A DNA stretch of 64,000 nt from the IMG/VR virus record IMGVR_UViG_2029527006_000005; one strand, given 5' to 3'. This stretch comes from a virus. Lineage: Duplodnaviria; Heunggongvirae; Uroviricota; Caudoviricetes. Positions within the stretch are counted from its first letter, which is position 1. Each line of letters opens with the position of its first letter. The translations under genes were made by a program, and so were the position numbers. The notes below the pieces were generated by a model. That model saw nothing but the letters and a program-made list of their open reading frames with translations, made no database searches and had not been told where the DNA came from. Positions 55,215 through 58,750 of this stretch are shown here, piece by piece.

Positions 55215-56090
55215 ATGAGTAAAATGAACCCACTCGCTAAGTATACTAAGATTGAAGAGATTTTTGTTAAACTAGCAAGTAACAACGTAGTAAAATACAA
55301 ACCTGAAGTACTAAAAAGTATTAAACTAGGTGTTTGTGCTCGTGCAGCACGTGATGAAATTATGCTTAACACACCAGATGCACTTATCGGAGGTGATGCA
55401 GTGATTAAAGTCATTGAGAACTGTGTTCCCGGTATTGAAGATGCTGGTGAGTTGTTTGTTAATGACGTAGAACAGCTTTTAATTGCAATTAAAGTTGCTT
55501 CTAAAGAAGAAGATTATGAGATTCAAACAAAATGTCCACATTGTGATCATGAAGGTGCATTCCATCGTAATCTACAAAATTTACTCGATACAATGAGCTA
55601 TTTCGATAAACAACCAATCGTAGAATTAGTAAATGGTCTAAAAGTTTATTTCAAACCTTATACATGGAATGAGTACAGTGATTTTGGTCAACGCATGTTC
55701 CAAGAGCAAAAGAAATCAGAAATGATTGATTTAATCGAAGGGGATGATGATGAGAGTACTGAACAGAAGAAGAAAATGTTCACTGAAGTATTTGAAGCGA
55801 TGACTCAACTTAACTTTGACATGATTGTTAAAAGTATTGAGAAAATTGAAACACCAGATGGTGATATTGTGGATAGTGCAGAATTTATTCTTGAATGGGT
55901 AAGTTCACTACCAAAAAGCACACTTAAAGAAGTACGTGAAGCATCTGATGAACTTCAAGAGATTGGTATCAGTCATAAAATGGAAGTGCAATGCTCTGAA
56001 TGTGATCATGAATGGGAAATCGACAAACTTCGTTATGACCCATCACATTTTTTCGGATTCAGCTTCTCATTGCCAAGCCAGAAGAAATAA
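55215..56090 (+). CDS. Baseplate hub assembly protein (gp26-like)
   Basis: NPLAKY, DEIMLNTPDAL, LLIAIKVAS, two CxxC pairs (CPHC, CSEC). Confidence 0.75.
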   Translation: MSKMNPLAKYTKIEEIFVKLASNNVVKYKPEVLKSIKLGVCARAARDEIMLNTPDALIGGDAVIKVIENCVPGIEDAGELFVNDVEQLLIAIKVASKEEDYEIQTKCPHCDHEGAFHRNLQNLLDTMSYFDKQPIVELVNGLKVYFKPYTWNEYSDFGQRMFQEQKKSEMIDLIEGDDDESTEQKKKMFTEVFEAMTQLNFDMIVKSIEKIETPDGDIVDSAEFILEWVSSLPKSTLKEVREASDELQEIGISHKMEVQCSECDHEWEIDKLRYDPSHFFGFSFSLPSQKK

Positions 56091-56266
56091 GACAAGTGTT
56101 GAGTGATATGGAACTCAATGTAAAAGAGATAAAGTCATCTCTTATGGAGATTTCTGTCTATATCACTAACACTTCCTATGAGATGCTACTCAATATGCCA
56201 ACAAATGAAAGAGACCTTCTGGTTCGTGCATATAACAAAAAAGTAACTAAAGAAAACAAATCATAA
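56054..56266 (+). CDS. gp51-like ORF in the -1 frame, probably reached by frameshift
   Basis: -1 frame open 56039-56266: FFRIQLLIAKPEEIRQVLSDMELNVKEIKSSLMEISVYITNTSYEMLLNMPTNERDLLVRAYNKK; slippery T TTT TTC at 56048-56054. Confidence 0.6.
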   Translation, partial: RIQLLIAKPEEIRQVLSDMELNVKEIKSSLMEISVYITNTSYEMLLNMPTNERDLLVRAYNKKVTKENKS

Positions 56267-56290
56267 CCAGCCTCTGTGCTTGGTTTTTTT
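56265..56290 (+). terminator. Intrinsic terminator
   Basis: AACCAGC...GCTTGGTT followed by T-run. Confidence 0.6.
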
Positions 56291-56504
56291 GTATCTTAAT
56301 TTGGGTAATAATCAATTATTGTATCTATCTTGTTTGATTAGCCAATCTTCGATTGTCTAAGAATTTTCAATTATTCATAACTCATTTCATTCGTTATTCA
56401 TAATTTCAATTCATTTCTAATTATTGAATGTACTTAATTGTACTTTATATCTTGACGAGATTTGCTGAGGTAATTTCATCCCCCCGCAGGGGAATGAAGA
56501 CAAT

Positions 56505-56527
56505 AAAAAAGACCCAATTAAGGATCT
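56505..56527 (-). terminator. Terminator closing the candidate ncRNA
   Basis: Minus strand AGATCC-TTAATT-GGGTCT-TTTTT. Confidence 0.65.
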
Positions 56528-56955
56528 GAATATTGCTTGACGCTGATAGCATCGGAATTATTGTATAGTGAATTTCTAAATTTCTTTAGAGCGAAAGCGG
56601 GTTGCTCTGTTTCTCTCTATCACTGTCATGTGCAACGGTCGTAGTCTTAGTACGCATACATTAAAATCCATACAATCGAATCTTAATGCTGTTCAAATTT
56701 CAAGCGGATCTATAGCCAGCCTTAAAATTGAACTCCCTTAACAAGTGTGGTCAGGTGTCCCTCATATATCTATCTAGCAAGCGTCAATCTGTCTAACACG
56801 CTCGTTTATAGTGCCGTATTGCCGTGGGTGGTACAAACTATGCCAACTCCTAACGGGTCTCTTCTGCACTTCGCACGTGTGGTCTGCTCATCTGCCATCT
56901 ACATTTTCGATAGGATCAGGATTCATTTCGTAGGCTTTCGCCTCCACACTGAGTT
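56505..56955 (-). ncRNA. Candidate structured non-coding RNA of about 450 nt
   Basis: Promoter 56962-56990, terminator 56505-56527, no credible ORF, GAAA tetraloop hairpin and long-range pairings. Confidence 0.5.
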
Positions 56956-56961
56956 ATCTAT

Positions 56962-56990
56962 ATTATATCACACTTTTGCTCATTTGTCCC
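56962..56990 (-). promoter_or_regulatory. Phage early/middle promoter facing the non-coding region
   Basis: GGGACA-N17-TATAAT. Confidence 0.8.
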
Positions 56991-57036
56991 AAAAAACGTA
57001 AATACATTGTATTAATTATTTGGAGAAGTACTTAAG

Positions 57037-57528
57037 ATGACAAAAAAACGATTAAAAGATTCTAAGGATGCTGCAAAGTACCGTAATGAATTACTAAAAA
57101 AACAAAATGGTATTGATCCTATTACTAAAGAAGTCATAACTAAACCAGTACTAGATCATTATCACCAAGGCCACCAGCATTGTCGTGAGGTACTACAAAA
57201 CGAATGCAACGCATGGGAAGGGAAAGTAACCAATAGCTTTAATAGATACATGAAGCACTTAACAGATAAACCACTATCCGAAGTACTGAGAAACCTAGCC
57301 GATTATCTTGATCGAAATGGTAGTATCCCTGAAGACGAAATGGTAATTCACCATACTGCACTTACCGTGGATGTTAAAAAGTTTAAAGCCTTACCAGCAG
57401 CCCAACAGTGTTCAGTACTAGAATCTTTTGATGTGATTCCTGATACTAATACTGCGAAAAGAGCAAAACAAGCTCGTAAATTAATCAAATCTGGCGATTT
57501 GGATATGCTTAAATTAAAAAGGAGTTGA
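57037..57528 (+). CDS. Recombination endonuclease VII (gp49-like)
   Basis: Reads on + (track label wrong); LLKKQNGIDPI, VLDHYH, REVLQNECNAWEGK, LRNLADYL. Confidence 0.8.
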   Translation: MTKKRLKDSKDAAKYRNELLKKQNGIDPITKEVITKPVLDHYHQGHQHCREVLQNECNAWEGKVTNSFNRYMKHLTDKPLSEVLRNLADYLDRNGSIPEDEMVIHHTALTVDVKKFKALPAAQQCSVLESFDVIPDTNTAKRAKQARKLIKSGDLDMLKLKRS

Positions 57529-57529
57529 T

Positions 57530-58750
57530 ATGTTTCCATTACCAAGAATAAGTACTTATGGAAATAGAGTGGTAGTTAAAAGTGATATAGTAAAAGTACT
57601 AAGTAATGTTGGTGCAGCTACTGTAGTTCTGTATAGTAGCGGTCAATTGTATGGTTGGGGTTCAAACGCCCAATATTCATTAGGTACTGGAGATAATACA
57701 CCAATAACAACACCTACTTTGTTACTTAGTAATGTAAAAGATGTATGGTTGGGTGTTAACGATACTCTTGTTTTAACCAATGATGGTAAAATGTTATGTT
57801 CTGGTATAGGAACATTATTTGATAGTTCAAACATTCGTCGTGCCTCATGGACTGATGTTAGTTCATATTTTAGTTCTATAGGAATTGAAAATATAAAGAA
57901 AATTGATATTAATGCTGGATGTTTGGCAGTCCTAGACAAATCAAATAGATTGTATGCATGTGGTGATAACATTTATGCCAAATATGCACCAAGTGCTTCG
58001 ACTAGATATGCAACACCAACGTTGATTTTATCTGTGTGTTATGATATACATGGAAATGGCAACCAAGCATTATTTACATTACGTTCTGATATGAAAATAT
58101 ATGCTGGTGGGTCAAACTCAAATTACCAGTTAGGTACAACCGCATCCAACCAAGGAATGAATACTATAATTTATAATCCTTATACTTTTGCGTATCCGGG
58201 ACTATCATTAGAAAATGTATTATACACTTCACGTATCAGTACATTTATAAACAACGCAACGATGACCGGGGGTGGTAATGATTCGAATCGAATTCGACCT
58301 GCTGGATCTAACAATAGTGGTCAACTGAGTTTTAATCTTAATAACACTACAAATTATAGTGGATTTGGTAATAACTCAACTCTACCCTCTGGTGTTGATG
58401 GTTCTACAATAGTAAAGGGATATTCATCGTTGGGTAACTTTGTATCTCCTGTATTACAAACTGCAACTGGAATATATCAGTGTGGGTATGGTGGATATGG
58501 TCAACACGGAAATGGAGGAATTGGTAATTTACTTATGTATACCCGAAATTCTTCAATTGATAGCATCATAACTGATTATTCAAAATTGAAAATTTGGTGC
58601 GTTGGATTTTATAGTTCATTTTTTGTATATGAAAATAAATTATATGGTGCTGGTGGTGGATCTGCTTCTACTGTTAGTACTGAATTGCCGGGTTATAGTT
58701 CAGTACAAACATCATTTGTACGTATCGCTTTACCACTTGACCCACCATAA
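57530..58750 (+). CDS. RCC1/BLIP-II-repeat beta-propeller protein
   Basis: Reads on +; LYGWGSNAQYSLG, GSNSNYQLG, GSNNSGQL, GYGGYGQHG. Confidence 0.8.
   Translation: MFPLPRISTYGNRVVVKSDIVKVLSNVGAATVVLYSSGQLYGWGSNAQYSLGTGDNTPITTPTLLLSNVKDVWLGVNDTLVLTNDGKMLCSGIGTLFDSSNIRRASWTDVSSYFSSIGIENIKKIDINAGCLAVLDKSNRLYACGDNIYAKYAPSASTRYATPTLILSVCYDIHGNGNQALFTLRSDMKIYAGGSNSNYQLGTTASNQGMNTIIYNPYTFAYPGLSLENVLYTSRISTFINNATMTGGGNDSNRIRPAGSNNSGQLSFNLNNTTNYSGFGNNSTLPSGVDGSTIVKGYSSLGNFVSPVLQTATGIYQCGYGGYGQHGNGGIGNLLMYTRNSSIDSIITDYSKLKIWCVGFYSSFFVYENKLYGAGGGSASTVSTELPGYSSVQTSFVRIALPLDPP

Follow-up and report, generated by a model that had tools for sequence, protein, structure and literature searches.

A structured RNA locus with matched RNA and DNA boxes, a candidate RNA-primed replication origin in RaK2/GAP32-clade jumbo phages

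The window analysed here, a stretch of 64,000 nucleotides from a virus of the Caudoviricetes (IMG/VR record IMGVR_UViG_2029527006_000005), has one long gene-free gap, at 56267-57036, the next largest being of 179 and 186 nt, and an earlier note on this DNA was right to single it out as the only long gap in the window. A single open reading frame, of 84 codons on the plus strand, lies inside it. The gap is bordered by a T4 gp26-like baseplate gene with a gp51-like frame and by a gene for endonuclease VII (Table 1). The gp26-like protein and the endonuclease VII are 83-86% identical to their counterparts in Salmonella phages 7t3 and SE_PL, an identity which, as judged from these proteins, places the window in a Munch/7t3-like jumbo phage of the RaK2/GAP32 clade. 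The phage encodes T4-like replication genes, together with UvsX-like, gp46/47-like and endonuclease VII functions. The gp26-like gene has, close to its end, a T-TTT-TTC slippery site with an open -1 frame running into the gp51-like sequence (56048-56266, plus strand); site and frame are kept in all eight relatives in which the site was located, including the distant SCTP-2 and RsoM2USA, and the arrangement, beside a tape-measure-like gene, resembles the lambda G/GT chaperone frameshift. The endonuclease VII gene is followed by a repeat-rich frame of 406 amino acids (57530-58750, plus strand) for which GAP32, PBECO4 and Munch have no gene at a similar position.

Table 1. Features of the locus, in window positions (a dot in the strand column, no strand)
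Feature	Position	Strand	Remarks
T4 gp26-like baseplate gene and gp51-like frame	55215-56266	+	transcribed towards the element
C-GNA-G triloop mini-hairpin, candidate helicase/primase loading signal	56338-56360	-	non-template strand
AT-rich stretch, candidate DNA-unwinding element	56361-56451	.	22% GC over 56290-56450
Box B, 16-20 nt from the G tract	56452-56461	-	proposed pairing site of box A, on the template strand
C-rich/G-tract hairpin	56473-56498	-	conserved downstream; run of 5-7 G conserved, here G6 at 56485-56480
Intrinsic-terminator-like hairpin and U run	56505-56527	-	in 30 of 76 copies
Box A, 3' RNA segment, weak hairpin of variable register	56537-56547	-	box B plus one extra A
Structured RNA body, about 420 nt, multi-helix	56537-56955	-	at least three pseudoknot-type pairings
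3' core: hairpin 56689-56658, its loop 56676-70 pairing with 56566-60 (pseudoknot-type)	56560-56689	-	covariation
3' core: pseudoknot 56636-32 x 56605-01; helices 56624-20 x 56571-67 and 56617-13 x 56597-93	56560-56689	-	covariation
5' core: helices 56870-66 x 56814-10 and 56856-53 x 56825-22	56766-56870	-	covariation
5' core: pairing 56819-17 x 56768-66, hairpin 56804-56778	56766-56870	-	covariation
P1 helix, 56951-45 x 56882-76, enclosing two variable hairpins	56876-56951	-	covariation/pairing
Phage replication-gene-class promoter	56962-56991	-	non-host -35 motif, TG, TATAAT
Endonuclease VII gene	57037-57528	+	divergent flank of the element

The promoter that had been seen to point into the gap is there; with it the motif occurs eight times in the window, each time on the minus strand, and others of the eight precede SSB, exonuclease, DNA-polymerase operon and late-sigma genes. 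Transcription is predicted to start near 56955. With a strict pattern, a promoter of this class stands ahead of 63 of 80 copies of the RNA, including all 12 island-type copies listed (see below), and the search for an antisense promoter gave a weak match only (9/12), away from the RNA 5' end. A search of RNA libraries with the 121Q copy returned only contigs, the best of which begins upstream of the promoter; flanking genes are covered as well, and the contigs may be of DNA origin. The RNA body is richer in GC than its flanks, as had been noted (43% against 35-36% in the flanking genes). The short ORF of 12 codons near the 5' end exists, with its ATG at 56926; that ATG is retained in 7 of 76 homologs, across which no conserved reading frame was found in the RNA. 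An explanation by a small ORF was rejected on this lack of conservation and on the spacings between anchors, which are spread evenly over all three frames.

With BLAST the gap has matches in 62 phage records, at four to six places in each. In Munch there are exactly five copies, at 40.5, 100.2, 182.0, 263.0 and 316.4 kb, and from it we infer the copy number of the window phage; GAP32, BF and fHe-Yen9-04 have five each, PBECO4 has four and RaK2 three. The copies within a genome are all on the same strand, and their places are conserved across genera. Pattern scans added metagenomic copies, among them one from a sewage phage of 44% GC that sits at the same place after gp26. The endonuclease VII gene adjoins just one of the paralogs. 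The copies are spaced more evenly than at random (P 0.0008-0.02, for loci that are orthologous between genomes and non-independent), the three copies of RaK2 being unevenly spaced. The RaK2 copies at 280 kb and 192 kb (L294 and L297) have near-identical 3' halves and different 5' halves, which suggests gene conversion between paralogs. Among more distant relatives, the whole genomes of PA5oct (including ncRNA001/002), Atu_ph07, SCTP-2 and RsoM2USA gave no significant match to the profile or the covariance model (CM). The Ralstonia phage RsoM2USA has, at the same place after gp26, a gene-free stretch of 1.4 kb (L292:1625-3025), part of it a -1 frame, with several hairpins and no CM match, which is possibly analogous.

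The fold of the RNA was deduced from an alignment of 76 non-redundant copies with a mean identity of 61%. Covariation on collected homologs, a check the earlier note had proposed, was scored against a tree-based null with our own R-scape-like script and not with R-scape itself, and 20 pairs of columns reach the null maximum, 19 of them complementary base pairs and one an identity. In the paired columns 101 cells hold G-U and 15 hold A-C, and the minus strand is therefore the folded strand. The single sequence folds no better than its shuffles (z -1.16), so that homologs are needed and the structure rests on covariation. For the 3' core an independent counter found 93.9% of cells paired, with two-sided changes in 17 of 20 pairs and none of 500 shuffles as high; slid controls give 40-50% of cells paired.

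Among the individual stems proposed before, that between the 5' strand and the copy at 56877-56884 reappears as P1, with 56876-56882 as its partner and 77-94% of copies paired per column. The alternative partner at 56744-56750 is paired in just 15-58% in six of seven columns, and the idea of alternative folds is left unsupported. The AGCGU/ACGCU stem (56780-56802) holds in its outer pairs; the proposed AGAGC/GCUCU stem (56588-56608) competes with the covarying pairings 56636-32 x 56605-01, 56617-13 x 56597-93 and 56590-88 x 56577-75 and is unsupported, and the GAAA tetraloop (56932-56943) falls in a variable hairpin. The pair 56606-56494, which scored in a small set, is outside the top pairs in the larger one and was rejected. 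A module of about 25 nt (56722-56693, minus strand, and its homologs) has two possible positions in the RNA, of which some copies use one and some both, and it is thus a movable structural module. The covariation, the strand asymmetry, the conserved promoters and the lack of a conserved ORF support the earlier suggestion of a new class of large structured phage RNA, for which the first boundaries were too short; the gap, on this evidence, would encode a real, promoter-driven, pseudoknotted RNA gene, longer than first described.

As the earlier note had supposed, the RNA belongs to no known class that we could find. Rfam, which includes ROOL and GOLLD, gave no family either at the gathering score or at E up to 10, where the only scores were chance ones to snoRNAs, miRNAs, sRNAs and CRISPR repeats, and ARAGORN found no tRNA or tmRNA. 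Membership of ROOL, GOLLD, OLE or HEARO was rejected for want of a match to any of these Rfam models, and group I and II introns, RNase P and tmRNA likewise, with neither an Rfam nor an ARAGORN match to an RNA that is intergenic and has its own promoter. A resemblance of short motifs to the ColE1 origin and to RNase P failed in profile tests: ColE1 gave no profile-HMM match and a best CM score of 12 bits (E 0.85), and a plasmid collection gave no significant match. Literature searches found no description of the RNA, fragments of which may appear in the supplement of a 2023 screen for viral structured RNAs (PMC10690425), nor any described replication origin for the RaK2/GAP32-clade jumbo phages. 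The RNA family is, as far as these searches reach, new to Rfam and to the literature covered.

The terminator, which had been taken to close the transcript, is present as a hairpin with a T run; it does not close the conserved unit, since only 30 of the 76 copies have one and the conserved elements continue past it to about 56338. In nearly all copies the C-rich/G-tract hairpin is followed by box B and then by AT-rich DNA, with 19-59 nt from box A to the G tract and 16-20 nt from the G tract to box B. Box A (11 nt), less one A, has the sequence of the downstream box B (10 nt). Because the pattern by which the boxes were extracted fixes some of their positions, the weight lies on the variable ones. 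At box position 2 the columns 56546 and 56460 are identical in all 76 copies (T in 40, C in 36), and no other non-complementary pair exceeds the maximum of the null; at positions 2, 3 and 5-9 all 11 changes on the tree, over about eight branches, are joint changes in both boxes. The otherwise constant core of the boxes is altered in both in RaK2, in sewage phages and in a Serratia island, and between paralogs within one genome the boxes differ from locus to locus yet match in cis, which a single trans-acting protein would not require.

The mismatches are also directional. All 14 transition mismatches, among 119 tails, are G-over-A or T-over-C, as is compatible with wobble for RNA on template DNA; G/A has arisen in six separate clades and A/G in none. 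The position beside the extra A is mismatched in 25 of 76 copies, mostly as G in the RNA opposite a purine. From the joint changes and the direction of the mismatches we infer that box A of the RNA would pair with the template DNA under box B as an RNA-DNA hybrid. The boxes of a distant copy (L178, CM E 4e-13) are unrelated in sequence and obey the same rule, with 12 of 13 matches and the extra A, a result reached by 3 of 500 shuffles. That copy (L178:520-1500) has the 3' core; a long hairpin replaces the G tract, and two mini-hairpins of the GNA type lie downstream. Another, L211:9-495, has the core and the G tract, no clear box A and a ParE-like gene nearby, and its contig stops before box B. 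The boxes were also considered as an antisense promoter, their complement resembling a -35 element, and rejected as there is no good -10 at the proper spacing.

A regulatory leader or antiterminator, in which the boxes are alternative RNA pairing partners or protein-binding repeats, would fit the facts that some copies precede genes on the same strand, that the terminator is optional and that box A lies in a weak hairpin. The window copy, however, points into convergent genes and so has nothing to regulate, no complementary partner that covaries with the box columns was found in the aligned RNA, and the variable spacing and the cis-specific variants speak against protein-bound repeats; we consider such a leader very improbable.

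Downstream of box B the DNA has a mean of 73% AT across copies, in a genome that is itself AT-rich. In the 180 nt after box B there are 100 GNA mini-hairpins in the sense direction and 4 in the antisense direction, where shuffles give 8.4 +/- 2.9; they are found in 65 of 72 copies with all four middle bases in use, and the average for C-GNA-G hairpins over the Munch genome is 0.1 per 180 nt. Mini-hairpins of this class are more stable in DNA than in RNA and occur at the G4 and ssiA priming sites (PMC13037366). For the hairpin to fold, the non-template strand must lie exposed, as it does within an R-loop.

The RNA is also carried, as a full and single copy, by islands in the chromosomes of Citrobacter, Silvania, Serratia, Enterobacter, Buttiauxella and two strains of E. 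coli. The usual order in these islands is an integrase (serine or tyrosine), the RNA, a CI/Ner-like switch, membrane genes, a resolvase and defence cargo, the switch being missing from the E. coli island and from one Serratia island. The E. coli island (L283) lies at ffs and measures 10.7 kb between 24-bp repeats; no repeat of at least 9 bp was found in the three serine-integrase islands searched. Serine-integrase islands are apparently inserted at the 5' end of a pilin-like gene beside nadC (L285:2403-2846 and L286:18119-18526), in Citrobacter as in Enterobacter. The defence cargo comprises DarTG, Hachiman, Lamassu, GmrSD and PDC-M45, and at L286:7764-11564 and L288:6840-10598 a long ADP-ribosylglycohydrolase is found with DarT and a UvrD-like helicase; a gene for an ADP-ribosylglycohydrolase also follows one copy of the RNA in phage BF.

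Searches with Pfam and PHROGs recognised no Rep, primase, relaxase, terminase or capsid-modifying gene in the islands, several of whose proteins have no family, and one of these may be a cryptic Rep. Within the islands the phage-type promoter stands only ahead of the RNA, and the boxes, the G tract and mostly the mini-hairpins are kept. We regard the islands as probable satellites that would be copied on infection by such a phage. They resemble the P4, PICI and PLE satellites in being integrated elements of about 10 kb with an integrase, mostly a repressor switch, defence cargo and, in the E. coli island, an att repeat, and differ from them in having no recognisable Rep, primase, terminase or capsid-modifying gene and in that what unites them is a locus for a non-coding RNA, which they took from a jumbo phage or have in common with one.

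The locus might instead produce an ornate RNA that acts in trans, as a scaffold, cage or sponge of the ROOL/GOLLD kind, with multiple copies for dosage and with islands that captured it as a decoy or defence RNA. With ROOL, GOLLD, OLE and HEARO the RNA shares its size, its many helices and pseudoknots and its association with phages, its invariant junctions broadly resemble the class, the clean terminator of 30 of the 76 copies would yield a discrete RNA, and the islands hold defence cargo. It is unlike these RNAs in its cis-matched downstream DNA elements and in that, at the loci viewed, neither a tRNA nor a nuclease gene adjoins it. A role in trans leaves unexplained the match of each box A to its own box B, the strand-specific hairpins of DNA type and the retention of the downstream DNA by the islands, which a trans decoy would not need, and dosage requires no dispersed, evenly spaced and syntenic copies. 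This reading, though it keeps some real weight, is unlikely, and the roles of scaffold, sponge or anti-defence RNA that the earlier note had listed fail, when purely in trans, on the cis-matched boxes and the DNA-type hairpins.

A selfish mobile RNA element, intron-like or a remnant of a retro-element, that spread in phages and into islands would account for the multiple copies and for their presence in unrelated islands, and the looped-out A is reminiscent of branch points. Against this, the copies occupy conserved places across genera, including that after gp26 in the 44%-GC sewage phage, their number is stable, no nuclease or RT was seen adjacent and no Rfam intron matches, and no gene is interrupted at the loci viewed, so that a mobile element seems hardly probable.

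We consider it moderately probable that the element is a cis-acting, RNA-primed R-loop origin which works in the manner of ColE1 RNA II and T4 oriF; among the four roles listed earlier, that of replication primer fits best. On this model, transcription from the replication-gene-class promoter would give an RNA that folds into the multi-pseudoknot body defined by covariation, and box A, on a tether of variable length, would pair with the template strand under box B with one A looped out. By analogy with ColE1, the duplex would thereby be held open just past the G tract and a persistent R-loop would extend into the AT-rich stretch, where an RNA 3' end, formed by trimming or by RNase H cleavage, would prime the leading strand. 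The displaced strand would fold the GNA mini-hairpins, whose enrichment is observed, and these may load helicase and primase. Three to five copies on the same strand would spread initiation over a genome of 350 kb, and islands having this promoter and the complete cis unit, and no Rep that could be recognised, would be copied during phage infection, as parasites of the phage.

The proposed origin is a member of neither the ColE1 nor the T4 oriF/oriG kind, having no homology to ColE1, while the T4 origins have no common motif. Like ColE1/pMB1 RNA II, the locus has a promoter-driven RNA of several hundred nucleotides upstream of the proposed origin with no Rep protein recognised, a G6 tract near that origin and a GNA mini-hairpin downstream on the same strand; the mini-hairpin of ColE1 lies about 170 nt past its origin region and is its primosome site. 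It differs from RNA II in lacking sequence or CM similarity, in the position of the G tract, here before box B, in its multiple copies in a lytic phage and in that neither an antisense RNA I (no Rfam RNAI match) nor an equivalent of Rop was seen. In both, part of the RNA upstream repeats the sequence of a site further down, and in ColE1 this segment pairs with the downstream template DNA (PMC4412123), as we propose here; in the phage the segment is a mixed box of 10-11 nt, one A longer than its partner and placed at the 3' end of the RNA, and in ColE1 it is a G loop in mid-RNA.

T4 has at least five origins, two of them defined as a promoter and an unwinding element (PMC3016281). The phage shares with oriF/oriG several proposed origins per genome, T4-like replication genes, a promoter that combines a sigma70-like -10 with an upstream motif specific to the phage, and an AT-rich stretch downstream, again in an AT-rich genome. 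The T4 origins have no shared motif, require some 100 bp and depend on no specific sequence to form R-loops, whereas the copies described here are paralogs of one 420-nt RNA with matched boxes.

Several facts weigh against reading the element as an origin. A hybrid of 10 bp is weak and would need additional help; read-through or trimming must be assumed, since in 30 of 76 copies a terminator stands between the boxes; and the need for a knotted body of 420 nt in a primer is not accounted for. Nor is there a skew switch at the copies, and the uneven spacing in RaK2, the mismatches beside the extra A in 25 of 76 copies, the want of a clear box A in L211 and of a G tract in L178 count on the same side. 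The same RNA-DNA clamp could serve to initiate recombination, in packaging or in genome organisation instead of priming: the box rule and the displaced-strand hairpins fit equally well, the phage has the UvsX-like, gp46/47-like and endonuclease VII functions, and a packaging or recombination signal would benefit the islands. The promoter class, however, drives replication genes and not evidently late genes, endonuclease VII flanks one paralog only, and the layout matches that of known priming origins, and we judge a clamp with such functions distinctly unlikely. A bolder form of the origin model makes the folded RNA itself the initiator, its core opening box B and handing the primer to the replisome with no initiator protein, so that the islands would be Rep-less satellites replicating only through this RNA origin; the conserved extra A would then possibly be used chemically. 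This stronger proposal strikes us as unlikely.

The element provides a precise candidate for a replication origin of the RaK2/GAP32-clade jumbo phages and a hypothesis of function for a large ornate RNA, a class with mostly unexplained roles. Should it act as an origin, it would be a structured primer RNA without detectable relation to ColE1 RNA II, and defence-carrying enterobacterial islands may parasitise jumbo phages by way of an RNA locus and not a Rep gene.

In the Munch genome both the GC skew and the skew at four-fold sites are dominated by gene strand, with no switch at the copies. One region of that genome, at 330-350 kb (L259-L260), has a strong reversed GC skew, of -0.13 to -0.28, unlike the remainder.
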